IMG/VR virus record: IMGVR_UViG_3300027904_000006
Direction: 5' to 3' (one strand)
Length of the DNA stretch: 64,000 bases
Origin: a virus
Below are positions 7,205-34,293 of the stretch, piece after piece. The position numbers were made by a program, and so were the translations under genes. Each line of letters starts with the position of its first letter. The first letter of the stretch is position 1. Under the pieces are notes generated by a model. It saw only the letters and a program-made list of their open reading frames with translations. It was not told the origin of the DNA and did not search any database.

Positions 7205-7218
7205 CTACGTTACCTCCT

Positions 7219-10496: not shown

Positions 10497-10502
10497 ATTA
10501 GA

Positions 10503-11802: not shown

Positions 11803-11824
11803 AGCCTTACCTCCAATCTATCGT

Positions 11825-12034
11825 TTATGGCCCCGTCGCTGGCGGGGCAGTAGGCGCCGGTTGTGGCAACGTATCAGGGTCAATACGCGCAACCCTCCCA
11901 AATGTTATCATCCGGCCGATGGTCGCCAGGTTGATGACTTCGTTCGGTATTATTTCCCCGACTTCATAGTCCCTGTCGAACCTGACCGGCTTTGCGGCAA
12001 CATAGTAATAATCCACATTAACCCCTCCGAACAC
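11825..12034 (-). CDS. Small post-capsid protein
   Basis: 69 aa; YVAAKPVRFDRDYEVGEIIP. Confidence 0.55.
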   Translation of the reverse strand: MFGGVNVDYYYVAAKPVRFDRDYEVGEIIPNEVINLATIGRMITFGRVARIDPDTLPQPAPTAPPATGP

Positions 12035-12046
12035 GATCGTGTTTGT

Positions 12047-13093
12047 TTATACTACGAAATCAGGGCTAACGGCGTTTTCAAGGAACACCCCAAGGTCTTT
12101 GCACGTAACCTGCGGGTCTGTGCAGACAAGGCCCTCGATAAACTCCGTATGAGTCGGCGGCTCGCCAAGGTACTGCTGAACGGCTGTGTACATGCCGTTG
12201 CCAAGCATATCCCAGGTGAACGTGTAGCCAGCGCTCGGCTCCTCGATGGACGGGGCGTTAGTCGTATAGGTCAGAAGCAGCGAATTCGGGTCGCATATGA
12301 ACCTAAGCTGTTCCGGCAGGCCCACAGGCGCGTCGTTGACTATGCTTTCGGCCACGATGATTTCGTCCATCTTGAAAAGCTGCGCAAGCACGTTCGCGGT
12401 CACGTCAGCCGGGTTGGCCTCGCTGCCCTGGTACTTGATACGCTCAAGGATGGAGGCGTTTGTTTGAAGCGCCGCGAACACGTTGACGCCCATTGCCATC
12501 TTGTTCGGGCGGCGCATCCCGGAAATCAGCATTTTGATGGACAGCGCGTTGAAGAAGCGGACGGGGTCGGAATTCTCGTTGTCAAAGAAATAGAACTCGT
12601 TCGCGGCAGGCACGGCGCTTGTCCCTGTTAGCACGTTAGTCCACGCGGCCGGCCTGAAGTACATGTCGGCCCACATGACGTCCTGATGGATCAGCATTTG
12701 TTCCGCGATAAAGCGGGCCTTGGAACGGCGCGGGTCGATGACCGCCGGCGCGCCCGCGCGCTGGAAGTCAAGCGTGGAAATCTGGTCGATTCCGGTTATG
12801 ACCTGGTATACTTCACAGTGGTAGAAGTGGTCGCGCTTGCCGTAAATCGCGGGCGCTACATGGCCGTACTCCGGCTTGCGCCTCACGTTGTCGCGGGCAA
12901 GGTCGCCGCGGTCAAACTCGTAAAACCTGGATGAAGACAGAACGACCGGCACAAGCGGGAACATGCGGGTCGCGACAAAGCCCGCCGAGTTCTGGAAATA
13001 CGCCAGGCAGAGGTTTGTCAGGTAAATATGCGGCTGGAAAACGGCTTTCTTGATGTTTACCGCCACTTGTTCAGGCGTTAAATTATTAGACAT
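12047..13093 (-). CDS. Major capsid protein
   Basis: 348 aa; YLTNLCLAYFQN, FVATRMFPLVPV, NASILERIKY, EEPSAGYTFTW; follows scaffold and decoration genes. Confidence 0.88.
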   Translation of the reverse strand: MSNNLTPEQVAVNIKKAVFQPHIYLTNLCLAYFQNSAGFVATRMFPLVPVVLSSSRFYEFDRGDLARDNVRRKPEYGHVAPAIYGKRDHFYHCEVYQVITGIDQISTLDFQRAGAPAVIDPRRSKARFIAEQMLIHQDVMWADMYFRPAAWTNVLTGTSAVPAANEFYFFDNENSDPVRFFNALSIKMLISGMRRPNKMAMGVNVFAALQTNASILERIKYQGSEANPADVTANVLAQLFKMDEIIVAESIVNDAPVGLPEQLRFICDPNSLLLTYTTNAPSIEEPSAGYTFTWDMLGNGMYTAVQQYLGEPPTHTEFIEGLVCTDPQVTCKDLGVFLENAVSPDFVV

Positions 13094-13131
13094 TGTTTAT
13101 CCTCCTGTTCACACTTGGGATGATTATCCCC

Positions 13132-13554
13132 TTAAAGCCCAAAGCCGGTTCTGGTTATCTGGCAATGTACGCATTCGCCAGGCATGGAATGGGTAAAGGC
13201 CCAGCCAAAAATAAAATCATCGGCAATGGCTTTCCTTCCTAAACCACCCGCGGTGATTGTGATTGGGTCGCCTTTAAGCAATTCCTCGCTTGTCAGAAGC
13301 AGCCCGATGTATTTGATTAATATTTCCACCCGTTCCCCGGCGTAAATGGGGTCGAGTGACGGGCTTAAAATCAGCCCGATAGCCGTTTCGCCGGTTTCGG
13401 CCAGTACAATGTTTCCGTCCGCGTCATAGGCTACCGCCTTATGCGCGGGTTCTGCGATGTCGGCTGCGGCGTTCTCCGTAATGGTTGCGCTTTCGTTGAT
13501 GAAAGCGTTAAGGAATACGTGTTCGCCGATAGCGGGGCGTCCTCCGATTGCCAT
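13132..13554 (-). CDS. Capsid decoration/cement protein
   Basis: 140 aa, small beta-rich protein between scaffold and capsid genes (GETAIGLIL, LLKGDPITITAGG). Confidence 0.7.
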   Translation of the reverse strand: MAIGGRPAIGEHVFLNAFINESATITENAAADIAEPAHKAVAYDADGNIVLAETGETAIGLILSPSLDPIYAGERVEILIKYIGLLLTSEELLKGDPITITAGGLGRKAIADDFIFGWAFTHSMPGECVHCQITRTGFGL

Positions 13555-13556
13555 AA

Positions 13557-14789
13557 TTATTTGCCTCCCATGTATTCTTTATCGTATTGCGCGGCCAGTT
13601 CGGGGTTGTCCTCGAAAGCCTTGATAAGCGCCTGGGCCGTGGTCATCGCCGCGTTGTTCTTCTTAACGTCGGCTACAGCCATATTGACTCTGTCGTTGAT
13701 GTCACCGCTGCCGCTTGTGTTCTTGCCGAATTCCTTAAACAGCCCGCTTTTCTCGACCGTTGCCAAATGCTCGTCAAGCAGCGCCACATAGTCGTCGTAA
13801 GCCGTGCCTCCGGCTTTCTTGAGGTCATACAGCTTCGCGGCCAGCTCGTCGGATTTCTTGCCGATAATCTCGTATTTCTTCGCGAACCCGGTAAGCTGCT
13901 CCATTTCGACGCGCTTCCTGAGCGTTTCCAGTTCGTCTTTTTGCTTCGCGATTTCAGCCGCCTGCGCCTTTTTGATTTCCTCGAATTCGGCCAGGGCTTT
14001 CTTCACGTCCGGATGGATATCCGGCACGGCGGCGGGAGCAGGCGCGAACCCAATCGGGTTGGCAGGATCGTTTTTCAGGCCGTACCTCTTTTCAAAGTCG
14101 GCCAACTGCGCCTGTTCTTCCGGTGTCATCTTGCTTTTGTCAAACTTCATATCCATTTCCTCCTTTGGCGGGATATCAATCCCCTTATCAACGGGCTTGG
14201 ACACGACCGTATCACCGGTCGGGTTCGGCCCGGTTGTATCGTTCTTAGGAATACCGCTGTCGTTCGCCGAATTAGCGGGATTATCTGCCGGATTAGCAGA
14301 ATCGAACCCGATCGGGTTCACGATCGTGTCGGCGGTTAGTCCCTTCCAGAACGCTTCAAACGCTGTCTGGGTCTTGGCGTTCGGCCCCTTGGGGACAATC
14401 GTCCCCTTCTTGCTGATGTCTTTTTCAAGGCATTTGCCGACGCACCAGCCCGGCACGGAGGCCCTAATCGTTTCCGCAAACTCGTCGAACGATTTAAACA
14501 TCATGTCGCGCTTTGCCGTTTCGTCTAAATCCTCGTCAAAAAGGATTGACGCCAGGCTATCCGAGAACATGTAGGTGAAGTCGAACATTTCACGCGCGAC
14601 TTTATGAAGTATCTCCATTTGAACGCCGTCATTGAACGTCATGGCGTCCTTTGCCACGCCGCCATTATCCTTTTTGTCCCGCTTAAACAGCCGGACATGA
14701 GCCAGCGGGTTGGCCCCGTTGTCTACCAGGTCTACGCTGGTCAGTTTCAGGTTTTTAAGCTTGTTCGCCAGATTTGTCACCCCTTTCAT
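13557..14789 (-). CDS. Scaffold / prohead maturation protein
   Basis: N-terminal LKNLKLTSVDLVDNGANP..VRLFK; charged coiled-coil C-terminus ending FKEFGK. Confidence 0.7.
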   Translation of the reverse strand: MKGVTNLANKLKNLKLTSVDLVDNGANPLAHVRLFKRDKKDNGGVAKDAMTFNDGVQMEILHKVAREMFDFTYMFSDSLASILFDEDLDETAKRDMMFKSFDEFAETIRASVPGWCVGKCLEKDISKKGTIVPKGPNAKTQTAFEAFWKGLTADTIVNPIGFDSANPADNPANSANDSGIPKNDTTGPNPTGDTVVSKPVDKGIDIPPKEEMDMKFDKSKMTPEEQAQLADFEKRYGLKNDPANPIGFAPAPAAVPDIHPDVKKALAEFEEIKKAQAAEIAKQKDELETLRKRVEMEQLTGFAKKYEIIGKKSDELAAKLYDLKKAGGTAYDDYVALLDEHLATVEKSGLFKEFGKNTSGSGDINDRVNMAVADVKKNNAAMTTAQALIKAFEDNPELAAQYDKEYMGGK

Positions 14790-19364: not shown

Positions 19365-20738
19365 TTACGTGCCCGGTACGAAGCCGCTTCCATACGTCCC
19401 TTGCCTATCGTCTGGCGGGCGGTCCGTTGCCGACCCTCCAATTGCGGGTTCAGGCTCGTGTTCCGGGTTCCTGCTTAACGCGCCCATGTAGGTAGTATTC
19501 GGGTCGCGGTCAGGCAAATCCGCGGCCATCCGCAGATAATCTTCCATATCTTCATCCGGGGTTATCGCGCCTATGCCAACCAGGTCTTTGACGAACCTGG
19601 CAAGGTCTATCAAGTTCGGCTTTTCGATATCACTATGTATGAGTTCGGGGTATCCGGTCATGCCTTGGAAAGCGTCGCCGTTAATGTCAAGCAGCCTTGG
19701 GATTGCCTGATTGTTGAACATTTCGCATATGAGGTCTAAATACGCGCCTAGGGCTACGCCGAAAAGCTCCGTCTTGTCGCTGGACAGGGCGAAACTTCCG
19801 ACCTTCTGGTGGCCGAGAAGCACAAAGTCCGCAAGCACGGTCATTGCTATCCGGTTGTCGTAACGCTCGATAATAGCGTTGGTGTCAAACTGCCTGCGGC
19901 CGCCAGTGGTCAAAAGCGTCAGCTTCCAGCCGTTGCCGATGACAATGCCTTCTTTTTCGTCGCGGCGTATCCTCTGGACAAGCCGCTCCGCGCGCGCCAG
20001 GTCAGCCGCCGCCTCGTCGCTCCATATGTCCGCGCCTTCCGGGGCTTCCAGCATTGGCAGGCCCGCCAGGTCGCGTTCTATGCCTATTCCCTCGATTTCC
20101 TGTATCCGGCGCTTAAACCACCACGGCCTGTAGGCGTTGCGCAATATAGACCGCCCCTCCGGGTTGGCTTTGCGGCTTTTCGTCCGGATATGCAACGCTT
20201 TTTCAATGGGCAGGAACACCTGCTCAAACGTCGGCGGGGCGCATTGGATCATGCCCTTTATATTTTCGTGGTCGTCATATACCCATTGCCATAACGTATC
20301 CTGGCTGCGGATGGGAAGCTTGCGCCAGCCGATAAGCCCGTCGTCGAATTTGCTCCTGGTATCCGGGTTCCTTGTTTTGCCCATCCTCCGTTTATAAATG
20401 ATCTCATGCCAGCTCCATCCGAACGTTAAAAAGGACAAAACTTCGCTGATAAAGTCAGACCAAGTTTCGTCCATGTCGTGCATACATGAGAAGATAAATT
20501 CGGTTGCGCGTATGTCGGCTTCGGAATTGCCCGCTTCCTTGATGTTCCAGACAGTCTGCCGCATGAGCATTTCGATTGCGAAAAGGATAGCGCCTACGAT
20601 ATCGTCGTTGTCGCTCATTTCCTTGAATATTTCAATCCCTTTGCGCCCGCGCAATTCGCGGAGGAATTCTTCGTAAATCCAGCCGCTCCAGCGTTGCAGG
20701 CCGCTTCGGCCGATTTCGGTAAACGCGTTGCCTGCCAC
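19365..20738 (-). CDS. Portal protein (Mu gp29/DUF935-like)
   Basis: EIGRSGL, GRSILRNAYRPW, GIERDLAGLP, GHQKVGSFALS; GTG start with AGGAGGTG RBS. Confidence 0.9.
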   Translation of the reverse strand: MAGNAFTEIGRSGLQRWSGWIYEEFLRELRGRKGIEIFKEMSDNDDIVGAILFAIEMLMRQTVWNIKEAGNSEADIRATEFIFSCMHDMDETWSDFISEVLSFLTFGWSWHEIIYKRRMGKTRNPDTRSKFDDGLIGWRKLPIRSQDTLWQWVYDDHENIKGMIQCAPPTFEQVFLPIEKALHIRTKSRKANPEGRSILRNAYRPWWFKRRIQEIEGIGIERDLAGLPMLEAPEGADIWSDEAAADLARAERLVQRIRRDEKEGIVIGNGWKLTLLTTGGRRQFDTNAIIERYDNRIAMTVLADFVLLGHQKVGSFALSSDKTELFGVALGAYLDLICEMFNNQAIPRLLDINGDAFQGMTGYPELIHSDIEKPNLIDLARFVKDLVGIGAITPDEDMEDYLRMAADLPDRDPNTTYMGALSRNPEHEPEPAIGGSATDRPPDDRQGTYGSGFVPGT

Positions 20739-20761
20739 GTTTCACCTCCTAGAGTTAAATA

Positions 20762-20800
20762 AGCCCGCTGTGGGAAAGGAGATAGAAAACACAGCGGGCT
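20762..20800 (-). promoter_or_regulatory. 11-bp stem-loop with an anti-Shine-Dalgarno-like loop just upstream of the portal RBS
   Basis: Minus-strand AGCCCGCTGTG-TTTTCTATCTCCTTTCC-CACAGCGGGCT; RBS AGGAGGTG at 20743-20750. Confidence 0.45.
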
Positions 20801-20975
20801 ATATGCAAAATAGGGCTACACAGCGTCCGGTCAGTACGGTAAATCGTCCAGGGACGCCCCTCCATCCAAATACGGTTGGGACAATCGTCCCCCCCGCCTC
20901 GCCCAGAGTGATAATCGAATGATAATTGATACAATGCTTACTACAAGCAACGACAACTCTATAATAACTTGTTTC

Positions 20976-22412
20976 TTATATTCTCTCATTTTGTGCCCGC
21001 CTCCAATAAGATTCTTTGTTCAGCCCATCGCCGTCGTCGCCGAACTTGGCGCTCGGCTTGCCCATGAGGTAAAGGATTCCCTGGACTGTGGCGTCTGTAG
21101 TATCCAAATACTTGGCGTTAGGGAACTTGACCAAATCGTCTATCAGATCGAATACCCACTTGTTCCTGCCGGTAGGCTTTGGGAAAAGGATGTTTCCCGC
21201 CTCAAAATACGGCGCGACTGACAGCGCCCTGTCCTCTTTGCTCCCCTTGGGTTCAAAGCTAATCATGCCTGGTATCTCTTTTCGCAGGAAGCTGATAATC
21301 GCGGGGCCGTTGGCCTTGTCCTCGACTACCTTTGCCCGCGCTTCCGGATGTTTCGCGGATAGCTGCCGGACTGCGGCCACGCTCTCGGTAAACTCCATCT
21401 GCTCGTTTATCATGTCGATGATATAGATATCCGCGCCTTTGCGCCCCATGACAATCCCGGCGCATTTGGAGCTTCCCTCGGATTTCTTGAACGGCAAATC
21501 CCAGGACTGGATTACAGTACAGCCATAGGGCAAAACAGAGTAGTAGTTCGTCATCCACGTACGCTTGAAGATATTCCCGTCCTGCACGGTGGGGTGCTGC
21601 TGGTACAGCGATTCCCAAACGCGGCTGCCGACTGTGTTTTTCGTCCTTTCCGCCCATTCCGCGTCAAAGCCCCTTGCCGGCCAAAGCGGGTCGCCAATCT
21701 GCCGCCCTAGCAGATCGTATTCCGTTTCGCACACGGCGGGCAGGCTGACCACTTCCCAGGTTTCGTCATGCGAATCAAGCAGCCGCCCAGCCAGGTCGTC
21801 TTCATGCCAGCGGGTCTGAATCAGTATGATACTGCCGCCGCTGTGCAGGCGCGTCCGGAAAGACGCCGTGTATTCCTCGAAAAGCCTGTCCCTGTATGTC
21901 TGGCTGCATGCCGTCATTGCCGACTTTATCGGGTCGTCGATTATTAATAAGTCGGCGCCGTGGCCGGTAACGCCGCCCTCAATGGTCGTGGAGTACATGC
22001 CGCCCGCATGGCCCTCGATTTCCCATAGGGTGGTAGCCGAATTGTGGCCGGCCAGCTTCAGGCCGAACAAATCCCTGCCGAACCAGACTATCTTCTTGCG
22101 GTTCTCGCGCCCGAACCGCTTCGCCAGCGCGTCGCCGTACGCCAGGCATATGACCCGCTTGTCTGGGTTTTTGAGCAAAAAATAAGACGGAAATGATTCC
22201 GTCACTGTGTAGCTTTTGGAATGCCTGGGCGGCATGAATATCATCAGCCGCTTATTCCCGTGTTCCAGAACTTCTTTCAGCTTTGAGCAGATAAGGCGCG
22301 TATGCCTCGCGTGCTGATACATGCCTTGGTATACATAGGTCAAATAATCCTCGTAGCTCTGCCTTGCCAGTTTCATAGCCGCTTTCTGGCTTACGCTAGT
22401 TGGTACCGTCAT
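20976..22412 (-). CDS. terL: Terminase large subunit
   Basis: Walker A-like FMPPRHSKS, Walker B LLIIDDP, IQTRWHEDDLAGRL, nuclease motifs QSWD and VEDKANG. Confidence 0.95.
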   Translation of the reverse strand: MTVPTSVSQKAAMKLARQSYEDYLTYVYQGMYQHARHTRLICSKLKEVLEHGNKRLMIFMPPRHSKSYTVTESFPSYFLLKNPDKRVICLAYGDALAKRFGRENRKKIVWFGRDLFGLKLAGHNSATTLWEIEGHAGGMYSTTIEGGVTGHGADLLIIDDPIKSAMTACSQTYRDRLFEEYTASFRTRLHSGGSIILIQTRWHEDDLAGRLLDSHDETWEVVSLPAVCETEYDLLGRQIGDPLWPARGFDAEWAERTKNTVGSRVWESLYQQHPTVQDGNIFKRTWMTNYYSVLPYGCTVIQSWDLPFKKSEGSSKCAGIVMGRKGADIYIIDMINEQMEFTESVAAVRQLSAKHPEARAKVVEDKANGPAIISFLRKEIPGMISFEPKGSKEDRALSVAPYFEAGNILFPKPTGRNKWVFDLIDDLVKFPNAKYLDTTDATVQGILYLMGKPSAKFGDDGDGLNKESYWRRAQNERI

Positions 22413-23205
22413 TCAAGTAATCGCCCCCTGCCAGCCTGCGCAACTCCGTTACTGATAAGCTATCGTACGGGTCTGAACTGTCTGTCGCGCCGGACGATCG
22501 TCCGGACGCGTCAGACAGCAAATCCATGCTTATCCTGTGGAAAGCCTCGATTGCTTTCTGCTTCTGGGCCGAAACCCGGCTCAGTACATCCTCAAACTTG
22601 GCTATGCGGAAACTCACGTCGCTAACCGTATGGCTGGAATCCTCTGTTTCCGTAACCGTGTCCGTAACTACGTCGCCGTTTGCGCCGTGGTACGTCACGG
22701 TCGTGTTCTGGGTCTTCTTGTCTTTCCTGATGGAATCGACAAGCAGCTTGTTTTCCGATTTCCTCAGCGCCTTTAGTTCGCCGATAATCTGTTTTTCGCG
22801 CAATGTATACAGCTTAATCAGGTTGCGCTGCTGGTAAAGCGGGTCTGAAAAGTATTTGTCGTTGGAGATAAACCCTTTTTCGTCATCGTCAAAATCGGAA
22901 AAAAAGAAGCCTTCATACTCATGCGTTTTGACCGAATTCTTATTGCGCGGCGGCGCCCCGTTGCCGCCTTTTGAGCCAACGGCATGTTGGTTGTTCTTCG
23001 GGCCGCCACGCGTTTTTGTTTTTGCTATTTTTTCCTGTTTTTCCGCAGTCAGTTCCAAATCCCATTTATCCCTGTTTTTCCAGCTTCGGACAGTCCCGTC
23101 CGATACGCCCAGCAACGTTGCGATTTCAAGCAGCGGTATTTCTCCGTTGCGTTGCAGGTAGATTTCCTTGGCTTTATCGCGTTCCGCGCTTCGTTCTGTA
23201 CCCAA
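22396..23205 (-). CDS. terS: Terminase small subunit
   Basis: N-terminal HTH (EIATLLGVSDGTVRSWKNRDKW), GGPKNNQHAVG, GAPPRNKNS..H; overlaps the terL start. Confidence 0.85.
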   Translation of the reverse strand: MGTERSAERDKAKEIYLQRNGEIPLLEIATLLGVSDGTVRSWKNRDKWDLELTAEKQEKIAKTKTRGGPKNNQHAVGSKGGNGAPPRNKNSVKTHEYEGFFFSDFDDDEKGFISNDKYFSDPLYQQRNLIKLYTLREKQIIGELKALRKSENKLLVDSIRKDKKTQNTTVTYHGANGDVVTDTVTETEDSSHTVSDVSFRIAKFEDVLSRVSAQKQKAIEAFHRISMDLLSDASGRSSGATDSSDPYDSLSVTELRRLAGGDYLNDGTN

Positions 23206-23231: not shown

Positions 23232-23810
23232 CTAATACTTCATAATGATTTTGGCCTTGTTATACTCGTTGCTGGATACAATCATCCGGAGAAAATCCTC
23301 GCGCGTAAAATCGGACAGCCTGAATATTTCCTCAGCCCGCATACCCAACTGGATACCTATTTCCTCAACCGACTTCCCTTTATCAAGCAAGTTCTTAATA
23401 ATTCTTTTCATCGGCTCAAGCAAATGCTGGCCCCGGGCGCGGTTATGCGTAATCGTGCCGTAGACGTAGTTGTCCTCGTCGGCCTGGTCGACGATAACAC
23501 GCGGCACTTTCCCACCCAGTATTTCATAAAGCGTTTTGCCGCGGTACTCCGGCTTCAGGTCGAACTCCTTGGTAAATGTGGGTATGTAGTCCCAATCAGG
23601 CCCCGATATGAACCACCTGTTGAACCCGTCGATAATCCGGTTATCCGGGCGGGCCACAAGCGGCATGGTAAAGCCGTTGACTATAATGCTGATTGTAAGC
23701 AGTATGAGGTTATCGCGCAATACCTTGTTCGGGTTATAGTCGTTCGGGATAAGCGTATCCCTGTCGACCCATGCAAGCGTACTTAGCGGGCCGCAAACAT
23801 CAATGCTCAT
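23232..23810 (-). CDS. ParB-N-domain protein (IbrB-like)
   Basis: PNDYNPNKV, GFTMPLV, IIDGFNR, TITHNRARGQH, IGIQLGM..EE. Confidence 0.85.
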   Translation of the reverse strand: MSIDVCGPLSTLAWVDRDTLIPNDYNPNKVLRDNLILLTISIIVNGFTMPLVARPDNRIIDGFNRWFISGPDWDYIPTFTKEFDLKPEYRGKTLYEILGGKVPRVIVDQADEDNYVYGTITHNRARGQHLLEPMKRIIKNLLDKGKSVEEIGIQLGMRAEEIFRLSDFTREDFLRMIVSSNEYNKAKIIMKY

Positions 23811-25012
23811 AAAACGCCCGCGCTCCCTTGCGTTGTCCTTAGCCGCATATTAAATTCGGCCTCCGCTTCCTTGACGTAATTAATCCTCATTTGCGCCTTC
23901 GCCGCCCTGAGCGTCCGCAGTTTCGGGTCGCCCGCGACAAGCCCTTCGTAAAGCCTCTTGAACCCGGCAGAATCAGCGTACGGCCCCATTTGCAGGAATG
24001 TGTTTCTGTACCTGCCGGCGACCCATTTTGAATGCTCGGTCGGGAAATACTTGTCGGGGTTCGCGAACATTTCACAAAGTTTGGCCTTGTAATCTATCTG
24101 CTCGACCGGGCCTTGGTTATCCTTTTTCTCCAGCGCCTTGCGCTTCGCGGTCGAACGCCTGAACATTTCGGTATCCCAGTAAAGGGCCGCCAAGTAAGCG
24201 TTCGGCTCGCGCCTGATAACGCGTTCCAGCAAGTCGGGGTAATACTCGTTCATCTTGATTAGGTTCGCCGCGGAGTCAATCGAAAAATACTGCGAAACTC
24301 GGAGGTGGTTCTTATAAATGCCCGCCTGCCACATGTACAGATATATTTCGGGGATCTCGACCTTGTTATTAAGCAGGTACAGCCATACGTCGTTATCTTT
24401 CCAGTCGTAAATCGGATGTACCCGGTGGTCGGAGGTCATATCGTTCTTAGCCATTGTCATTGCCGCCATATACGATATCCGCTGATACGATTCATAGGCG
24501 CGGACGCCGACAATCGTCAGGTAATGGCAGAACGCGCGGTGGCAAAACTCCTGGTATGTATCCTGCCTGGCCCTCAACAATGGGTGGGAACGGATTGCGA
24601 ACGGGGGAGGCCGCCTGACCCAGACGTCTTCTTTCCGCGAATCAAAGCAGATGAAGCTTTCGTCGCTCGCCAGCATATTGAAGCAGTTAAAATGCCTGAC
24701 CTCAATGCAGTACCAGTCGAACCGGGCGCCGGCCAGCATGAACTTCCTGCGCCAGTCCAATACAATTTTTTCGACGCACGGGAATATGGCTTCCTCGTCG
24801 ATAAACTGGACGGTCAACAGCCTGGGGTCGATTTCCCCGGCGCGGATTAAATCGTAGATCAGGTTAGCGGCGCATAGGCTGTCTTTACCGCCTGAAAAGG
24901 CAAACTTGACAGGCACGCCGTTACTGAAAATATTCTTTATCCTGATTTTTGCCGCCTCGACTACGTTTATGGATGCCTCCTTGATTCTTACAGCCATATC
25001 TTTTGATTGCAA
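23807..25012 (-). CDS. PAPS-reductase/PP-loop family protein (IbrA-like, DUF3440-type)
   Basis: PP-loop FAFSGGKDS, FIDEE, IVGVRAYES..R, PIYDWKDNDVW, LRVSQ. Confidence 0.88.
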   Translation of the reverse strand: MQSKDMAVRIKEASINVVEAAKIRIKNIFSNGVPVKFAFSGGKDSLCAANLIYDLIRAGEIDPRLLTVQFIDEEAIFPCVEKIVLDWRRKFMLAGARFDWYCIEVRHFNCFNMLASDESFICFDSRKEDVWVRRPPPFAIRSHPLLRARQDTYQEFCHRAFCHYLTIVGVRAYESYQRISYMAAMTMAKNDMTSDHRVHPIYDWKDNDVWLYLLNNKVEIPEIYLYMWQAGIYKNHLRVSQYFSIDSAANLIKMNEYYPDLLERVIRREPNAYLAALYWDTEMFRRSTAKRKALEKKDNQGPVEQIDYKAKLCEMFANPDKYFPTEHSKWVAGRYRNTFLQMGPYADSAGFKRLYEGLVAGDPKLRTLRAAKAQMRINYVKEAEAEFNMRLRTTQGSAGVL

Positions 25013-25629
25013 TGCGGGCAGATGATAAACTCGCTGTTATGGACAACGGCCTCGGCCAAATGCGCTTCGTGAGGGGGCGACTGCCCCGGCGACTGTTCCG
25101 GCGATAGCCCAGATTGGACAGGAGCCTGCGCGGGCAGGCTTGCCGCTTCCGCTTCCGCCCTTTCGCGCCTAGCGTTCATATCCTGCGCCTTATTGCTGTC
25201 CATGAGGCCAAATTGATTTATCCCCTGCGTCACTTCCTCAGCGGACGCTATCATCTGCTTGAGCATTTCCTCGTCATAGCCTGGGATATCGAGGTCGTTC
25301 CCAAGCTCGTTCAGGTAAGTTTCGATAACTTTGTAGTTATCGACGCCCATGTCAAATATCTTATTGTCGCTCATAACGATTTTCTTCTTTTCAGCCGGGG
25401 TCAAGTCCGGCCTGACAATAGCAAAGATACTTTCCCAGCCCAACTCCCGCGCTGCCATGACCAGCCCGTTCCCGATAAGGATCGTATTGGTTTCGTCGAT
25501 TACCGCGTTCTTTGTCTGGCCGAACATCTGCAAGCTCCGCTTATATTCCTCAATCTGCTTGCGCGGATGGCTCCGCACGTTTTCAGCCAATATATTTAAC
25601 TCGTTAAGGTTTACGCTAATTACGTTCAT
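24988..25629 (-). CDS. ParB-N-domain protein
   Basis: NVRSHPRKQI...SLQMFGQTKNAVIDE...ILIGNG, SDNK; C-terminal CPHC zinc knuckle. Confidence 0.8.
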   Translation of the reverse strand: MNVISVNLNELNILAENVRSHPRKQIEEYKRSLQMFGQTKNAVIDETNTILIGNGLVMAARELGWESIFAIVRPDLTPAEKKKIVMSDNKIFDMGVDNYKVIETYLNELGNDLDIPGYDEEMLKQMIASAEEVTQGINQFGLMDSNKAQDMNARRERAEAEAASLPAQAPVQSGLSPEQSPGQSPPHEAHLAEAVVHNSEFIICPHCNQKIWL

Positions 25630-26405
25630 ATGCGCCCTCCATCTAAAAAAACGTTTGCGCTTTCGATATATTCCGCCGCCCCCATTACTATATATGGGTC
25701 TATGTCAAAAACTTCCTTCCAGCCGTTTTCGATACTCCCCGTCCATTGCCTGGCCGGCCACGGGTGTGTGCCGCACAGATAGCCGTTATGCCAGCCATAG
25801 ATAGGCGGCAGCTTAACGTCGTAATAATGGATAAAAGCCAGCACGTCTTCATGCCGCCAGTAGGCAATCGGGGAATGCCGCGTTACGCCCGACGCGGTTG
25901 TATATGTGTTGCCGCCCGCCCCTATGTAGTTGCCCTCCGCACGCCTGCGCCCAAGCAGGAGCATGTCAAGCTTGTGGCTTTTGAAATACTTCGCCTGGCC
26001 GCGATGCTGGACTATGTGGAACCACTTGCCCGCAGCCGCGCTGTCCTGCGGGAAAAGGATTCCCTGGTTTTTTGAAAGCCAGTACAAATCCTGGCCCGTA
26101 TTGACTATTTCAAGCCGGCTAGGCTTATGAAACGTCACCCAATCCATAAAAGCCGGGTATTCCAGGTCGCACCTAACCAGGACGCAATCTTCAATCCCGG
26201 CCATCGCGCATAGGCGTTCCAGCACAAGGCTGTCTTTGCCCCCGCTCCATGAATACGCCGCTTTCCTGCCTTTGGTAGCTTGCATAATCTCCGTGACGGT
26301 CTTTTCAACCAAGAGGTCAAGCTCTTTGCGGGGCACGGCCTGCCAGATATTCTGCAATGCCGCTATCCACGCTTCGTTTTTCATAGTCTGTTTTTTCTGT
26401 AGCAT
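25626..26405 (-). CDS. Second PAPS-reductase/PP-loop family protein
   Basis: YSWSGGKDS, LLGRRRAEGN, PIAYWRHEDV. Confidence 0.8.
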   Translation of the reverse strand: MLQKKQTMKNEAWIAALQNIWQAVPRKELDLLVEKTVTEIMQATKGRKAAYSWSGGKDSLVLERLCAMAGIEDCVLVRCDLEYPAFMDWVTFHKPSRLEIVNTGQDLYWLSKNQGILFPQDSAAAGKWFHIVQHRGQAKYFKSHKLDMLLLGRRRAEGNYIGAGGNTYTTASGVTRHSPIAYWRHEDVLAFIHYYDVKLPPIYGWHNGYLCGTHPWPARQWTGSIENGWKEVFDIDPYIVMGAAEYIESANVFLDGGRI

Positions 26406-26409
26406 ACGC

Positions 26410-27393
26410 CTAATTTCCCACTTTTAGGTTAAATCGGTTTGTCGCGAAATCGGAAACACTTAGCCAATCGTTGGCTAAATCTCCGTTCCCGCGCATGTAA
26501 TCCAGCCAATACTGCGCGTCGCCCATGATAACCGCGCAATTTTCCTGATAGTAATAATCCTCAATGTATTTAACGTCCACTCCGGTATATTTCGATATGA
26601 CCTGCTTCGCCTCGGCCTGGTTGTTTTCAATCCACGCGGCGGCTTCCGCAATGGCCGTAACGAACCCCTCAGCCTGCGCTTTATTATTATCTGCCCATAC
26701 GCTATTGACGACATGCATGGAAAACTGCTTCTCGCCGAATATATCCAGCGCGTCAAACAACAGCCTGACGTTCGGCTGCTCTTTCGCGTGGAGTATGTAC
26801 GGCTGCATGAGGCCGATGGCGTCCACTTGCCCATTTATCAAGGCTAATTCCTGTTGGTCGAATGGCAGTATGACAAATTCCACATCTTCCCCGCTTAGGC
26901 CAGCTTTATCCAAGGCCATGAGCCAGGTGTAGTGAAATGAGGACTTGACAAGGTTTATGGCTATCTTCTTGCCCCTCAGATCCGCGACAGAAGTAATCGG
27001 ACGATTGTCCGCGGAGTCATCCAGTACAAAGAACTCCTCAAGCGCCTGAACCTTTATGGCCGATTGGAGGTCTGACACGCCGATGACGGGAAGCCCTTGC
27101 GCCCGCGCGTTAATAATCGCCATGACGGACGATACGCACGATTCAGCGTTGCCGCCGCCTACAGCCTGTAGCGCCGTTGGCCCGCCCGCGACGGTATCAG
27201 TTATTTCCACGGATACGCCCCGTTTCTCAAAAAAGCCTTTGTCCTTAGCGACATAAACAGGGTCATACACTTTCAGCCCAATATAGCGTACGCTGCCTTT
27301 GGCCTCTTTCCCGCCAGACAAATTAGAGAGCGTCACTATCAATACGCCGGCAATAAAAATTAGCGCCCCAATAAAAATCCGCTTCAAATCCAT
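26410..27393 (-). CDS. ABC transporter substrate-binding protein, SsuA/TauA/NMT1-like
   Basis: N-terminal TM (MDLKRIFIGALIFIAGVLIV); YVAKDKGFFEKRG, ITSVADLRGKKIA, LINGQVDA. Start moved to ATG 27393. Confidence 0.85.
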   Translation of the reverse strand: MDLKRIFIGALIFIAGVLIVTLSNLSGGKEAKGSVRYIGLKVYDPVYVAKDKGFFEKRGVSVEITDTVAGGPTALQAVGGGNAESCVSSVMAIINARAQGLPVIGVSDLQSAIKVQALEEFFVLDDSADNRPITSVADLRGKKIAINLVKSSFHYTWLMALDKAGLSGEDVEFVILPFDQQELALINGQVDAIGLMQPYILHAKEQPNVRLLFDALDIFGEKQFSMHVVNSVWADNNKAQAEGFVTAIAEAAAWIENNQAEAKQVISKYTGVDVKYIEDYYYQENCAVIMGDAQYWLDYMRGNGDLANDWLSVSDFATNRFNLKVGN

Positions 27394-27496
27394 CCCCCTA
27401 TAATAAAATAGCCGCCATACGAGGGCGGATTCGTACAGCAGCCATATTCGAAAAGAGGCGTGACACACGCCTCAGAAGCCTAGCATAGTGTAATGC

Positions 27497-28312
27497 CTAA
27501 TATGTTTCATCCACCCCCAGTAACCCTTTTCTAACTTTGCCCTGTAAAGCCGCCATGCTCCAATTCATGCCGCCTCCTATTAGGGCAATCATCAAAATAG
27601 TGGCGTAAACCTTGCTGAACTCAAACGATTGTGCGCTCCAAAGCAGATAGTACCCCAGGCCGCGCGACGCGCCCAACATCTCGGACGCCATAAGGCTAAT
27701 CCAGCCCCCGCCAATGCCCAGCCGCAAGCCGGTCAATATTGAAGGCGCCGCAAGCGGGACACGGATTTTTGAAAGTACCTGCCATTCGCCCGCGCCCTCT
27801 GTCCTCGCCGCCTCCACAATGGACTGCGGGGCGTCCAGGCTTTCCAGCGTGGAAACCAATACTGCGGGCCAGCTCGTCCAGAAGATGACGAACACCCGCG
27901 CGCCGCCGCCCAGGCCCATGAGTACAATCAAAAGCGGGAACAGGGTCAGCGCGGAAATGCCGCGTAAGCATTCCAGTACCGGCATGAGTGCAAATTTTAA
28001 GCGTTGGCACTGTGACAACACAATACCAACGCTCAGCCCCGCAATCATGGCAATCCCTATGCCTGACACTACAATCTGTAAACTGGCCGCTATGTTGGGC
28101 CAGAACGCCTTATCGCAAACAAGCCCCCAAAATGTCCGTGCAACCTGAATGAAAGACGGCATAGCCGGGCTTCGTACGCCCGCCGATGTAACCTGCCACA
28201 TCAACAGGGCGCCAATCATGCCTGCTATGCCGAACCTTAACCTGGCTGTTGTCCGCCATCGGGCATTTAGTTTTGCCCGCAACCGCCAGATTGCTTTGTG
28301 TGATTTTGTCAT
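27497..28312 (-). CDS. ABC transporter permease, SsuC/TauC-like
   Basis: Multiple TMs; EAA-like loop VEAARTEGAGEWQVL, PSILTGLR, MASEMLGASRGLGY. Confidence 0.9.
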   Translation of the reverse strand: MTKSHKAIWRLRAKLNARWRTTARLRFGIAGMIGALLMWQVTSAGVRSPAMPSFIQVARTFWGLVCDKAFWPNIAASLQIVVSGIGIAMIAGLSVGIVLSQCQRLKFALMPVLECLRGISALTLFPLLIVLMGLGGGARVFVIFWTSWPAVLVSTLESLDAPQSIVEAARTEGAGEWQVLSKIRVPLAAPSILTGLRLGIGGGWISLMASEMLGASRGLGYYLLWSAQSFEFSKVYATILMIALIGGGMNWSMAALQGKVRKGLLGVDETY

Positions 28313-28368
28313 GCTACCACAATATCATATAAATTAGTCTCAAAGTGTGTCAACCTCTCGACACGTTT

Positions 28369-28983
28369 CTACTCTTTAGCATACCAATACCTAAAATACT
28401 CTTTTTGCAGGTTGTTTTTCGCCAGCCAGTCCATGAACGGGACGACATATGCGGCGACAGGCGGCGTTTCTTCCCTCGGGTATGTTTCCGTCCAGACTTG
28501 CCTGCCGTCGCTTATCAAATACTCAAACTGCCGTGCGTACGGGATAAGCTCTAAGTACATCGAATGCTGCGGGTATGTCTTGAATTTGCCGGGCTTGTAA
28601 TTGTGCCCGAACTTAATGTCGTATATCAGGTCCTCTTTGAGTACGTCCAGCCGTCCGTTCAGCAAAAACGGTATGTCGCCAATGGTCACCTTTTTGGAGG
28701 CCACATACTGCCATACGCCTCCGCGTATGATTTTCGCTATCGCAGCCGCGCCCGGCTCCCAATCCCGATAGTTCGGGTAGTTACTGCAATCCAGCCCGTC
28801 AGCCATATCGCAGGCCATCTGCTCAAAGTCCAGGCCGTTCTGCATAGCCTGGTTCTTCGGGATAGGCTCGCGCCGCAGGGCCGTCATGAACTGCTCCGTA
28901 GCCTGTTCATCGCTGATATCGAAATACTTGATAAACTGGAATTGCCATGCGGACAAAAGTGAGGCCGTCATTAGATACCGCAT
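28369..28983 (-). CDS. PD-(D/E)XK nuclease family protein (Cas4-like exonuclease)
   Basis: LNGRLDVLKEDLIYDIKF, YPQHSMY. Confidence 0.7.
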   Translation of the reverse strand: MRYLMTASLLSAWQFQFIKYFDISDEQATEQFMTALRREPIPKNQAMQNGLDFEQMACDMADGLDCSNYPNYRDWEPGAAAIAKIIRGGVWQYVASKKVTIGDIPFLLNGRLDVLKEDLIYDIKFGHNYKPGKFKTYPQHSMYLELIPYARQFEYLISDGRQVWTETYPREETPPVAAYVVPFMDWLAKNNLQKEYFRYWYAKE

Positions 28984-29862: not shown

Positions 29863-29919
29863 CTGAAATCCCCCTTAGAATTTAGCGGCGGGGCTTGTGA
29901 CCCGCTCTTGCCGCATTAC
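29863..29919 (-). repeat. Conserved leader element, copy 1
   Basis: GTAATGCGG...GGTCACAAGCCCCGCCGCTAAATTCTAAGGGGG upstream of ATG 29862. Confidence 0.75.
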
Positions 29920-29935
29920 GCTGGCGTTAACCAGC

Positions 29936-30136
29936 TCACTCTGCGATTACAATTAACTCATATCCAATCCCTACACCAAGTACGTCATGACATGGCTTAC
30001 ACATATAAGACCAAGGGCCAAATATGGTTTTATCATCAAATTTTGCCAGCCTCCCACAAATATCACAAGCAACTTCCTCACTGATAAGTTTTTTTGTTAT
30101 TACTGGCCCCTCATTCAGTTTCTTTGCTTTCATCAT
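29936..30136 (-). CDS. Small zinc-finger protein
   Basis: CDICG...DDKTIFGPWSYMCKPCH...GIGY. Confidence 0.65.
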   Translation of the reverse strand: MMKAKKLNEGPVITKKLISEEVACDICGRLAKFDDKTIFGPWSYMCKPCHDVLGVGIGYELIVIAE

Positions 30137-30200
30137 TTTGAAACCCCCTCAGAATTTAGCGGCGGGCTTGTGACCGCACCGGTTTCCCGGGCCGCATTAC
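30137..30200 (-). repeat. Conserved leader element, copy 2
   Basis: GTAATGCGG...GGTCACAAGCCCGCCGCTAAATTCTGAGGGGG upstream of ATG 30136. Confidence 0.75.
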
Positions 30201-30228
30201 TGGGAGCGTGGCCCCCATCACTCTGCGT

Positions 30229-30935: not shown

Positions 30936-31301
30936 ATGAAACATCAAGAAGCTATCGCAAGGGGATTTTCAGCTACAGGGTTCTCGGATTTGTCCGATAT
31001 CGCAGCATTCAACAAAGCAAGGGAAGGCTTCAAGAAAGCCGGGTACAAAACGTTAATCGTAAATGAGCGGACGTCAAAGTATTCACGCGGCAACCCCGGA
31101 TGCGCTTACCGCACCCTATATGTCGAGCAGCGGTACCGTGACGACGAGGCGCTTAAAAGATACGAACAGGAGCTTGACGGGCTGGCGGGTCGCGGCAAGG
31201 CCGCAGAGGAAGCCTTCAAAGCCGAATTGCAAAAAATCTCCGAACGCGGCGTGGAGCTTGAAGCAATGATCGCCGAATTGAAAGCGAAAAACGCAGAGTG
31301 A
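30936..31301 (+). CDS. Hypothetical coiled-coil protein
   Basis: 121 aa; RBS GGGAGG. Confidence 0.65.
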   Translation: MKHQEAIARGFSATGFSDLSDIAAFNKAREGFKKAGYKTLIVNERTSKYSRGNPGCAYRTLYVEQRYRDDEALKRYEQELDGLAGRGKAAEEAFKAELQKISERGVELEAMIAELKAKNAE

Positions 31302-31318
31302 CGGCCCGTTTCGGGCTG

Positions 31319-31378
31319 GTAATGCGGGAAAGCCGGTCATAACCCCGGCGCCGCTAATTTATGAAGGGGGAATTAGGA
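31319..31378 (+). repeat. Conserved leader element, copy 3 (diverged)
   Basis: GTAATGCGGG...GGTCATAACCCCGGCGCCGCTAATTTATGAAGGGGG upstream of ATG 31379. Confidence 0.65.
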
Positions 31379-32458
31379 ATGATGTATGGCAGGTCTTTAC
31401 AGGATTTGGCCTTGGAGATTGAACGGCAGAAAAACGCCAAGGCAGACTATCTGGCCGACACGCGCCAGTTAAGCATGACGGTGTTCCCGAACATTGCGAC
31501 GACGGAGTATGAGCCGCGCCTCAGCCTGGGCACGAACGGGGATACGATTGAACTGGCCGTAAACGAGATAGCGCACGGCCAGATAGCTTCACATACCGGC
31601 ATCCCGTACAGGTACTACAACCGCATGCAGAAATCCGACCCGGAACTGCTCGCGCACAACGTCAATACATGGTTCAACAGGGAGCCGCAGACGCGGATGG
31701 TTCGGACACTGGACGGGACGGCGCGGGCGTTTTTGTCCGATAGGTACAGGCGCATAGACCACGCGGAAATAGCTGAGGCCGTATTGCCGATGATAGGCGA
31801 CATGCCCGGCGCCACGGTGGAAAGCTGCCAGCTTACGGACAAAAAAATGTACATCAAGGTGCTTAACCCGCGCATCCAGACCGAGATTGTTCCCGGCGAT
31901 GTAGTCCAAAGCGGCCTGTTAATCTCCAACAGCGAGGTCGGGCTAGGAAGCGTGGCGGTCCTGCCGCTAGTCTACCGGCTGGTATGCAGTAACGGCATGA
32001 TCGCGGCCGACAACGGCCAGCGCAAATTCCACGTAGGACGCGCTAATGAAGCCGACGACAACTACGAGATTTTCCGCTCCGTAACAATCGAGGCCGAGGA
32101 CAAGGCGTTCGTCCTGAAGCTTCAGGACATCGTTCGGGCGACAGCGGATTCCGTCCAGTTTGAACGCATCGTAAACGTCATGAGGACAGCCGCCGACGCG
32201 CGGATGACCAGCCCCGACATACCCAAGGTAGTCCAGCTTGCCTCCAGGGCGTTCGGTATTACGGAAAACGAGGGCAAGGGCGTACTTGACCACCTGATAC
32301 GGGGTAGCGACTTGTCGCTGTACGGGCTGGCGAATGCCGTAACCAGGACGGCTCAGGACGTAGGCAACTACGACCGCTCTACTGAGCTTGAGATGACCGG
32401 CTGGGATCTTATGAATATGTCCCGTGCCGAATGGAACCGAATTAACAATACAGACTAA
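31379..32458 (+). CDS. DUF932-family protein
   Basis: RAFLSDRYRRIDH, GLLISNSEVGLGS, YRLVCSNGMI, SLYGLANAVTR. Confidence 0.8.
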   Translation: MMYGRSLQDLALEIERQKNAKADYLADTRQLSMTVFPNIATTEYEPRLSLGTNGDTIELAVNEIAHGQIASHTGIPYRYYNRMQKSDPELLAHNVNTWFNREPQTRMVRTLDGTARAFLSDRYRRIDHAEIAEAVLPMIGDMPGATVESCQLTDKKMYIKVLNPRIQTEIVPGDVVQSGLLISNSEVGLGSVAVLPLVYRLVCSNGMIAADNGQRKFHVGRANEADDNYEIFRSVTIEAEDKAFVLKLQDIVRATADSVQFERIVNVMRTAADARMTSPDIPKVVQLASRAFGITENEGKGVLDHLIRGSDLSLYGLANAVTRTAQDVGNYDRSTELEMTGWDLMNMSRAEWNRINNTD

Positions 32459-32640: not shown

Positions 32641-33528
32641 ATGAAAAACCAAAATTTCGGAATTGAAATCGAATTGACCGGAATCTCCCGCGAAACAGCG
32701 GCGGACACGATTGCCAAATACTTCGGGACCACTGCAAGATACGTGGGCGGGGCATACAAAACATGGGAAATCACCGATACGCGGGACGGTTTCGGGAAGG
32801 TCTGGAAAGTCGTGCGGGACAGCAGCATATCCCCGTCCGGGACGCGCTCCAACGATGCAGATGAGTACCGCGTCGAAATTGTCAGCCCGATTCTTGGATA
32901 CTCCGAAATTGAAAAGCTTCAGGAGATTGTCCGCGAAATACGGCGGGCGGGCGGGAAAGTCAACGATAGCTGCGGAATCCACGTCCACGTCGGGGCGGAA
33001 AACCACACCGCCAACTCCTTGAGGAACATGATGACCATGATGTATGCTAGGGAAGACATCATCTTCAAGGCGTTACAGGTCGAATCATTCAGGCAATACT
33101 CCTACTGCAAGAAAACGTCCCTGACAACCCTGGAAAACGCCCGCAAAACCAAAAACCTCACGATGGACAGCCTGCGGGACATATGGTACGAGCAAAAAGA
33201 TAGCTGGCATTGCGCAAACAACCACTATCACAATAGCCGCTACCACGCCCTCAACCTGCACGCAACGTTCTCCAAGGGCACGGTCGAATTCAGGATGTTC
33301 AACTCAACCCTCCACGCGGGGGAAGTCAAGGCTTACATCAACCTGGCGCTGGCAATGAGCGACGCTTGCGTCAAAGCCAAGTCAATAGTCATGAAGAAGA
33401 CCGACGAGGCTGAAACCAAAATCTTCGGCGAATGGCTGAAAAGAATCGGCCTGGCCGGGGAAGAATTCAAAAACACCCGCGGACACTTGCTAAAGCACCT
33501 GTCCGCGGGCAACACCGCCACAGCATAA
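32641..33528 (+). CDS. Putative amidoligase (COOH-NH2 ligase family)
   Basis: FGIEIE, VRDSSI, EIVSP, SCGIHVHVG, RYHALNL, GTVEFRMFNSTLH. Confidence 0.9.
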   Translation: MKNQNFGIEIELTGISRETAADTIAKYFGTTARYVGGAYKTWEITDTRDGFGKVWKVVRDSSISPSGTRSNDADEYRVEIVSPILGYSEIEKLQEIVREIRRAGGKVNDSCGIHVHVGAENHTANSLRNMMTMMYAREDIIFKALQVESFRQYSYCKKTSLTTLENARKTKNLTMDSLRDIWYEQKDSWHCANNHYHNSRYHALNLHATFSKGTVEFRMFNSTLHAGEVKAYINLALAMSDACVKAKSIVMKKTDEAETKIFGEWLKRIGLAGEEFKNTRGHLLKHLSAGNTATA

Positions 33529-33548: not shown

Positions 33549-33833
33549 ATGAAAGTAACAATCGACGGGGCAGTATACGAGGCCGCTACGGCGGTCGCGC
33601 TCATTGAGGAAATCAAGGGCCTGCATTGGAAAGTAGACAGCACGACAGATGCGGAGGGGTATATCCGGATACAGTCCGAGATGTATTGCCGCATGGTAGG
33701 GCGCCAGATGGAATTGCCCGGACAATCGTCCGAAAAGGACACGGAAGCGCGGGCGATAGCCATGTTCAAAGCGGTTGCGGATACCGGCGCGTGGGAGTTC
33801 GAGGAGGAGGAGGGGGATACGATTGAAGGCTAG
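33549..33833 (+). CDS. Hypothetical protein in the amidoligase module
   Basis: 94 aa; RBS GGGAGG; lies between amidoligase and GGCT genes. Confidence 0.6.
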   Translation: MKVTIDGAVYEAATAVALIEEIKGLHWKVDSTTDAEGYIRIQSEMYCRMVGRQMELPGQSSEKDTEARAIAMFKAVADTGAWEFEEEEGDTIEG

Positions 33834-34293
33834 ATATTATTTCGCGTACGGCTCTAACTGCAACTTGCGCCAAATGGCGCAACGTTGCCCCAAGGCCGTC
33901 AGGGTCGGGCCGGTTACGCTTCGCAATTACATCCTTACGTTCAATGGGAAATCCAACGGGTGGGGCGTTGCGAACATCCAGCGTCAGGAGGGGGAGCAGG
34001 TCGACGGGCTGCTATGGAAAATCACCCCGGGATGTGAGGATAGCCTTGACATATATGAGGGCTTCCCGCACCTGTACACCAAACAGGACATCACGGTTTA
34101 CGGCTCGAACGGGAAAAAATACAAGGCCATGGCCTACGTGATGACCCCCGAGTACAATACTCCGGCTGTCCCAAGCCAGTATTACTATAACGGGATCGCC
34201 ACGGGGTTCCTGCAAAACGGGATACCGATAAATTCGCTCGTGAAAGCGCTGCGCCAAACAATCTTGACGGTAAATAGGCTGAGCGTTGTCTAA
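33823..34293 (+). CDS. Gamma-glutamylcyclotransferase (AIG2-like) family protein
   Basis: YFAYGSN, MAQRCP, LDIYEGFP, YVM; TTG start after the poly-purine RBS. Confidence 0.9.
   Translation: MKARYYFAYGSNCNLRQMAQRCPKAVRVGPVTLRNYILTFNGKSNGWGVANIQRQEGEQVDGLLWKITPGCEDSLDIYEGFPHLYTKQDITVYGSNGKKYKAMAYVMTPEYNTPAVPSQYYYNGIATGFLQNGIPINSLVKALRQTILTVNRLSVV

Follow-up and report, generated by a model that had tools for sequence, protein, structure and literature searches.

We analyzed a 64,000-nucleotide (nt) stretch of virus DNA (the window), taken from IMG/VR record IMGVR_UViG_3300027904_000006, that carries a cassette of six genes next to its terminase genes. Based on the predicted gene products, this is the ATP-binding cassette (ABC)-importer form of a widespread phage late-gene cassette, in which an importer, one or two PP-loop enzymes, and two ParB-like proteins are encoded before the terminase. 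We tentatively propose, with somewhat less than even confidence, that a compound is imported via a borrowed ATPase and then attached to phage DNA in an adenylation-dependent reaction that the ParB-like proteins guide at packaging. All coordinates are those of the window, which represents nearly the entire contig (the longest contig recorded for the binding protein is 64,822 bases). In 5'-to-3' order on the minus strand, the cassette and the genes directly 3' of it are as follows.

27497..28312, minus strand: ABC importer permease of the NitT/TauT type (Pfam BPD_transp_1, E=8e-23), with a conserved EAA coupling loop (EAARTEGAGEWQVLSKIRVPLA)
26410..27393, minus strand: extracytoplasmic binding protein of the NMT1/SsuA/ThiY fold (Pfam NMT1, E=2e-25), with an N-terminal membrane anchor
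25626..26405, minus strand: PP-loop ATP pyrophosphatase 1 (PP-loop 1), phrog_424 type (PAPS_reduct, E=6e-8; phrog_424, E=5e-31)
24988..25629, minus strand: ParB-N-like protein 1 (ParB1; phrog_620 ParB-like, E=1e-33; no Pfam match)
23807..25012, minus strand: PP-loop ATP pyrophosphatase 2, IbrA-like (PAPS_reduct, E=6e-10; phrog_2302, E=6e-80)
23232..23810, minus strand: ParB-N-like protein 2 (ParB2), IbrB-like (phrog_2159, E=3e-50)
19365..23205, minus strand: packaging genes, at the equivalent position in related loci, namely
22396-23205, minus strand: terS
20976-22412, minus strand: terL
19365-20738, minus strand: Mu-type portal gene

The initial annotation had placed six co-oriented genes at 23232-28312 on the minus strand, with stop/start overlaps joining the last four, and we confirmed both points. 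The overlaps fall at 25626-25629, 24988-25012 (24988-24997 if an ATG start is used), and 23807-23810. The binding-protein gene is separated from that of PP-loop 1 by only 4 nt and from the permease gene by ∼100 nt. The cassette opens the packaging operon, lying immediately upstream of terS, terL, and the portal gene.

The proposal that the importer and the PP-loop/ParB genes form one functional unit held up among relatives, in which the transporter genes proved to be linked to the enzymes. Counting as linked any locus with ParB/PP-loop genes ≤3.5 kb from the permease/binding-protein pair, we found linkage in 41 of 46 informative, nonredundant loci with a binding protein at ≥40% identity. These loci were drawn from viral, genome, and metagenome collections, with ∼65 loci added by the genome and metagenome scans. 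Linkage is not universal: the pair lacks ParB/PP-loop neighbors in five related loci. All six IMG/VR contigs reached via the binding protein carry the permease, binding protein, ParB1, IbrA-like protein, and ParB2 in that order, at 35 to 65% identity, and outside the cassette no gene in these six loci matches anything in the 64-kb window. Because only the cassette genes match, we conclude that the cassette is transferred as a unit among phages that are otherwise unrelated.

Gene order varied, with at least five arrangements observed. The commonest is permease, binding protein, ParB1, IbrA-like, and ParB2, and the second, found in the window, is the same with PP-loop 1 inserted. Others run IbrA-like, ParB2, PP-loop 1, permease, and binding protein or IbrA-like, ParB2, permease, binding protein, and PP-loop 1. 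In locus L018 the two sets of genes are interleaved (ParB, permease, PP-loop 1, binding protein, IbrA-like, x, ParB, terS, and terL). Genes overlap by 1 to 11 nt in relatives. The recurrence of the arrangement across dozens of independent contigs shows that it is not due to chance, and the survival of adjacency through reshuffling, including interleaving, is strong evidence that importer and enzymes share a function. One ABC-type viral locus, L006, has an extra PAPS_reduct gene (2467-3522; 351 amino acids [aa]; E=1.5e-23) directly 5' of the permease gene, which tblastn with either PP-loop enzyme of the window missed.

Relatives of PP-loop 1 revealed a second type of importer. A single-sequence scan gave none, and an alignment-based scan gave 392 viral contigs. 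In the best 80 of these 392, PP-loop 1 is 58 to 65% identical to that of the window, closer than in most ABC-type loci. The same best 80 retain PP-loop 1, ParB1, the IbrA-like protein, and ParB2, and most also retain terS; a portal gene with 58 to 62% identity to that of the window is present in 22. None of the best 80 carries ABC importer genes. The gene abutting PP-loop 1 upstream encodes a protein of 460 to 520 aa with 8 to 12 predicted membrane segments in 61 of the 62 loci with enough upstream sequence, and all nine abutting genes sampled encode sodium:solute symporters nearest PanF/PutP, although far under the model cutoffs. Both importer types were found together in no locus.

A third membrane protein occupies the same slot in the cultured Faecalibacterium phage FP_Taranis. 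This 333-aa protein is unrelated to the others, belongs to no Pfam family, has at least 7 membrane segments, and is annotated as “transporter membrane protein”; downstream of its gene come ParB-like, IbrA, and IbrB genes and then the terminase. Unrelated importers alternating in one slot are the pattern expected if the enzymes need something extracellular, and we conclude that the compound used by the enzymes probably comes from outside the cell. In a quick maximum-likelihood tree of IbrA-like proteins without bootstrapping, the ABC forms branch deeply and are paraphyletic, and the window protein falls beside the symporter clade, a placement that is not well supported. Parsimony on this tree requires at least two changes of importer label; when only the well-supported branches are considered, a single change of the ABC label is required.

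No ABC ATPase is encoded within the window, as the initial annotation had stated: a six-frame scan for Walker A plus an LSGGQ-type motif and a tblastn search with a true ABC ATPase (E≤0.01) were both empty. In ∼725 kb of sequence, covering the window plus the related loci collected at that stage, L019 and L020, both distant cellular loci, are the only ones with an ATPase gene next to the pair. L024 encodes one further ABC ATPase, which is part of a divergent ABC-2 exporter, and no related phage locus searched has an ABC ATPase beside the pair. The lack of an ATPase is thus a trait of the entire family and not a gap in the window.

The window permease has the loop EAAxxxGxxxxxxxxxIxxP, with the A, G, I, and P positions conserved among 39 homologues. 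The EAA loop is the ATPase-docking surface of such permeases. Borrowing an ATPase has precedent, because the ribXY operon of Chloroflexus aurantiacus, which consists of a COG0600 permease and a COG0715 binding protein and has no ATPase gene, restored riboflavin uptake to an Escherichia coli auxotroph (PMC4418817). The suggestion that a host ATPase powers the import of a small, possibly sulfur-containing molecule can therefore be kept in part: borrowing is plausible, given the conserved EAA loop, the absence of an ATPase from the phage loci, and the RibXY precedent, but the sulfur or sulfonate ligand has only family names behind it. The cassette offers a clean natural case of a phage that encodes nothing of an ABC importer but its specificity parts and apparently depends on the host for the ATPase.

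Neither the permease nor the binding protein reached any sulfonate/taurine equivalog or subfamily cutoff in NCBIfam. The nearest models to the permease are SaoP, TauC, NtrB, and SsuC, all far under cutoff (TauC, 114 versus 342; SsuC, 64.5 versus 347), and the scores of SsuA_fam and TauA are 116 versus 163.5 and 37 versus 304, respectively. An AlphaFold model of the binding protein (predicted local distance difference test [pLDDT] score, 91) has an N-terminal helix at residues 2 to 23, and its best Foldseek matches are SsuA, TauA, Thi5, ThiY, and a thiamin-binding protein; in sequence, it is only ∼25% identical to SsuA. At E≤1e-10 it has 343 homologues, and the N terminus of the family consensus is lipoprotein-like. 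A GTG at 27468 offers an alternative start for the open reading frame (26410-27468), although the true start is likely the ATG at 27393, which lies behind a GGGGGA ribosome-binding site. A Protein Atlas search with the binding protein gave generic NMT1 clusters only. The cassette used as a nucleotide query had no match among deposited phages, and a search of deposited-phage proteins with the binding protein gave only distant matches. Because all of the latter are at <32% identity, we conclude that no isolated phage carries the ABC form.

The sulfur or sulfonate ligand first suggested as possible for this importer is not supported. Equivalog cutoffs were missed, the symporter with which the importer is interchangeable is nearest PanF/PutP, and the PAPS-reductase-type catalytic cysteine is in neither enzyme. 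Across 32 homologues, the invariant columns of the binding protein are rich in Tyr, Trp, Phe, His, Gln, Asn, and Asp/Glu and include no Arg or Lys, which weakly suggests that a polar or aromatic organic ligand would fit them better than a simple anion. The soluble, well-folded binding domain makes the ligand findable and the ABC form the most useful one experimentally; once identified, that ligand would reveal the substrate of the symporter forms as well.

Outside the cassette, the permease/binding-protein pair is partnered with ATP-dependent ligases or DNA enzymes, which points to ATP-dependent joining reactions or to DNA. In three Chloroflexaceae loci (L010, 71-7543; L012, 3051-9968; and L056, ∼7189-13977), the pair, at ∼50% identity, occurs with one or two AsnB-like PP-loop amidotransferases. 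The same loci encode, in two gene orders, a conserved ∼190-aa protein and a ∼410- to 450-aa protein that is weakly Toprim-like (L010) or zinc-ribbon-like (L012), and they may represent a separate cellular system. In L024 (6153-14072; L025 is a near duplicate), a binding protein with 63% identity and a permease are followed by two HisRS-like genes and an ATP-grasp gene resembling L-amino-acid ligases, a possible hint of an amino-acid-like ligand. In L062 (4645-8163), an Eco57I-type (type IIG) restriction-modification methylase gene begins 16 nt past the binding-protein gene.

Both PP-loop enzymes retain motifs of the catalytic type. PP-loop 1 has WSGGKDS, LGRRxxxGN, and HE motifs and no conserved cysteine. 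The IbrA-like protein has FSGGKDS, GxRxxESxxR, a C-x4-H-x2-C motif kept within its subfamily, and a C-terminal helical domain with REPNAY. The G-K-D core of the PP-loop is invariant in both enzymes, as are both serines in the IbrA-like one, and the catalytic-type motifs are invariant in the 18 to 29 homologues aligned for each enzyme and ParB-like protein. PAPS_reduct was detected in all 28 aligned IbrA-like members, and Pfam DUF3440 only in the distant members from L017 and L018 and not in the window protein; the C-terminal residues R263, P265, A267, Y273, G356, D357, K359, and R361 are invariant in all 28, including those two. The IbrA-like protein can safely be described as an ATP pyrophosphatase that adenylates some substrate. 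NcsA and TtuA, which are iron-sulfur tRNA thiolases, are among the nearest folds to its model (pLDDT, 80), along with PAPS reductase, TilS, LarE, and the PAPS domain of human FAD synthase. The fold search tells no chemistry, since these are generic PP-loop neighbors at low TM-scores.

Two specific identities were rejected for these enzymes. As candidates for CysH, PP-loop 1 has a YLCGTH cysteine that is replaced in most of 10 aligned homologues, the IbrA-like protein is without an ECGLH-type motif, and PRK02090 scored 16.7 bits versus 154. For DndC, TIGR03183 scored 22.7 bits versus a cutoff of 290.

Pfam ParB_N did not match the ParB-like proteins of the window at E≤0.01, despite their strong matches to ParB-like PHROGs. 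ParB1 has an NxRxHPxxQ motif, GNG in place of GxxR, and a C-terminal CPxC. Its residues 1 to 134 match phrog_498, “DNA methyltransferase” (E=6e-24), which is the ParB domain type of ParB-DNA-methyltransferase fusions. ParB2 retains the DGxxR box, and its NPN, DGxxRW, and NRARGxH motifs are conserved among 29 homologues; a conserved C-terminal segment appears helix-turn-helix-like. The IbrA-like and ParB2 genes are adjacent with a 4-nt overlap, and the IbrA-like protein is 44% identical to FP_Taranis gp37, which is annotated as IbrA and has gp38, annotated as IbrB, as its neighbor.

Two further features lie within or just 5' of the cassette, as listed below.

28324..28353, minus strand: sigma-70-like promoter match (TTGACA-18-TATGAT) just 5' of the permease start, a consensus match only
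27408..27445, minus strand: hairpin in the gap separating the permease gene from the binding-protein gene, after which come the GGGGGA ribosome-binding site and the ATG at 27393

The promoter match is weak, as promoter-consensus sites numbered 15 versus 11.6 expected in shuffles. Just 5' of the permease, a gene at 28369-28983 (minus strand) encodes a 204-aa product with no Pfam match and a D-x-K pattern (LIYDIKF) that looks like a PD-(D/E)XK nuclease motif; a weak homologue occupies the equivalent place in the related locus L046. Three Type-P5 twister ribozymes (RF02684), at 29889-29945 (minus strand), 30162-30227 (minus strand), and 31292-31348 (plus strand), scored 55 to 57 bits versus a gathering score of 37.6. 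They flank a divergent control region that immediately precedes both the late operon and a DUF932 gene (31361-32458, plus strand). The DUF932 gene precedes an Amidoligase_2 gene (32641-33528, plus strand; E=3e-66) and a GGACT (gamma-glutamyl cyclotransferase) gene (33775-34293, plus strand). We rejected these three genes as parts of the cassette, as they occur in no cassette-bearing related locus.

In the mechanism that we tentatively favor, the membrane-anchored binding protein would capture a small polar organic molecule outside the cell, and the phage permease would move it inward, powered by a host ABC ATPase docked on the conserved EAA loop. The IbrA-like enzyme, with the second PP-loop enzyme where present, would use ATP to adenylate a substrate, to which the imported molecule would then be joined. 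The ParB-like partners would bring this reaction to phage DNA at packaging, leaving on virion DNA a mark that depends on an imported precursor and that may protect against restriction. Several observations suggest that the target is DNA: the constant position of the cassette before terS, the match of ParB1 to the methyltransferase-fusion domain, the helix-turn-helix-like segment of ParB2, and the precedents of Dnd and Dpd. In those systems, ParB-family proteins serve DNA modification, as DndB and DpdB, respectively (PMC10853773, PMC12839542). More generally, and with less than even confidence, we suggest that phages of many gut and environmental bacteria may import a compound, by an ABC pair, a symporter, or a third membrane protein, and place it as a mark on their DNA no later than packaging.

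Several observations weigh against DNA marking fed by import. In the window region and 10 related loci, no riboswitch (FMN [flavin mononucleotide], TPP [thiamine pyrophosphate], or others) or other regulatory clue to the ligand was found. ParB1 is without the arginine of the GxxR box and may not be a canonical nucleotide-binding ParB. A sequence search of solved structures with the IbrA-like protein gave no match. In two cassette-bearing Bacteroidota bins (2.1 to 2.6 Mb; completeness not given), the phage copy is the sole NitT/TauT-type permease found, so that no cognate host ATPase is evident. Sampling was biased, in that ABC loci were reached via the binding protein and symporter loci via PP-loop 1. 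Finally, E. coli IbrA and IbrB are described as activators of prophage gene expression and not as DNA modifiers.

The imported compound could instead be the thing that the enzymes convert, in which case the ParB/Srx-like proteins would be nucleotide-using enzymes, and late infection would be aided, or a host defense countered, by the resulting cofactor, nucleotide analogue, or signal. There are analogies for such a pathway, in that PAPS-reductase-like FAD synthase adenylylates FMN and CysD adenylylates sulfate. Among the fold neighbors of the IbrA-like protein, the PAPS domain of human FAD synthase and LarE act on small molecules, and the partners of the pair elsewhere include AsnB-like, ATP-grasp, and HisRS-like ligases, which use small carboxylates or amino acids. 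That ParB1 has no canonical arginine box also favors this reading, as does the membership of the binding protein in the NMT1/RibY/ThiY family, which typically carries vitamins and cofactor precursors (PMC4418817). We nevertheless consider this unlikely, though a substantial possibility, because two ParB-like proteins are present, one of them helix-turn-helix-like and the other with the domain type fused to DNA methyltransferases, and because the fixed place beside terS/terL suggests a DNA-linked step. It is improbable that the cassette is a regulatory module in which the IbrA/IbrB-like proteins activate the late (packaging) genes, as IbrAB does the eib genes of prophages, and the importer brings an environmental cue. 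Such a role would accord with the position at the head of the late operon, with the ParB2 segment, and with transcriptional activation by IbrAB in E. coli ECOR-9, the sole known experimental record for such proteins (PMC10434257; FP_Taranis annotation). However, a protein with a purely regulatory role would not be expected to keep its PP-loop catalytic motifs invariant over wide divergence, supplying a cue alone would hardly justify the cost of a dedicated importer, which exists in three unrelated forms, and the cassette is absent from many phages with similar terminases.

The permease/binding-protein pair could be a passenger, either an independent lysogenic-conversion set or a non-transporting remnant that landed beside IbrA/IbrB genes, as the promoter-like site just 5' of the permease, the missing ATPase, and the five related loci with the pair alone might suggest. 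Linkage in 41 of 46 loci through rearrangements that include interleaving, the tight spacing (a 4-nt gap in the window and 1- to 11-nt overlaps in relatives), the other importers in the same slot, and the strong conservation of the EAA loop and binding-protein core make this very unlikely. The usual database reading is that of sulfur auxiliary metabolism, with sulfonate or taurine import and PAPS reductases boosting host sulfate assimilation, and phage “PAPS reductase” is routinely listed as a sulfur metabolism gene (PMC12323421, PMC11318856). Only family names favor it here (PAPS_reduct, with SsuA_fam and TauC among the best matches), and it is barely credible, being largely refuted by the data. 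The C-terminal catalytic cysteine (ECGLH-type) is conserved in neither enzyme, the CysH, CysD, SsuA, TauA, and TauC models are far under their cutoffs, and no desulfonating enzyme is among the genes annotated around the cassette. Moreover, in other phages the importer serving these enzymes is a PanF/PutP-like symporter or an unrelated membrane protein, and obligatory ParB partners and linkage to the terminase would make no sense in sulfate assimilation.

Phage “PAPS reductase” genes rank among the viral genes most often cited for sulfur metabolism, and many phage genomes have annotated IbrA/IbrB pairs. Both are mostly labeled as genes of sulfur metabolism (PMC12323421, PMC11318856) or as co-activators. 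Our analysis argues that, for this PP-loop family, the sulfur reading is wrong and an imported molecule is what the enzymes depend on. If import-fed marking of DNA is correct, the precursor of a DNA modification would be scavenged from the environment, which would be new in kind, and phage “PAPS reductase” and IbrA/IbrB genes would gain a function. A DNA mark, if that is the product, would add a new class to the known phage DNA modifications and would matter for restriction evasion and for virome studies based on sequencing. Our literature search found no paper describing linkage of IbrA/IbrB or of phage “PAPS reductases” to an importer.

Each part of the cassette can be compared with a known system. 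SsuABC/TauABC together with CysH share with the window the fold and family of the binding protein and permease and the Pfam family of the enzymes. Unlike them, the window has no ATPase, no catalytic cysteine, scores below the equivalog cutoffs, and no desulfonation genes among those annotated around the cassette, and the importer of such a cassette is exchangeable with a PanF/PutP-like symporter. RibXY of C. aurantiacus and ThiXYZ combine a BPD-type permease with an NMT1/ThiY-type binding protein, and RibXY is, like the pair of the window, a two-gene unit without an ATPase (PMC4418817). In contrast to RibXY, the pair is phage-borne and joined to PP-loop/ParB genes, with no FMN or TPP riboswitch upstream in the window or the 10 related loci.

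In Dnd and Dpd, a ParB-superfamily protein accompanies a DNA-modifying enzyme, and DndC, like the enzymes of the window, belongs to the PAPS-reductase-like PP-loop ATP pyrophosphatases (PMC10853773, PMC12839542). The window differs in that no DndA, DndD, DndE, or DpdA (TGT-like) was found among the genes scanned (the structural half of the window was outside the scan), and neither Dnd nor Dpd includes an importer, unlike the cassette described here. The closest likeness is to IbrA/IbrB and to gp36-gp38 of FP_Taranis, in which a PAPS-reductase-family PP-loop protein likewise stands beside a ParB-like protein. In FP_Taranis, as in the window, these genes precede terS/terL, and a membrane “transporter” gene lies directly upstream. 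Gene activation is the sole known phenotype of IbrAB, and no link to transport appears in the literature searched. Pfam does not detect DUF3440, a domain associated with IbrA, in the IbrA-like protein of the window. Compared with FP_Taranis, the window has an ABC permease and a binding protein rather than a single membrane protein, plus a second PP-loop/ParB pair. IbrA/IbrB-type pairs and phage “PAPS reductases” are known and widely annotated, and the literature searched gave no description of the ABC-importer form of the cassette.

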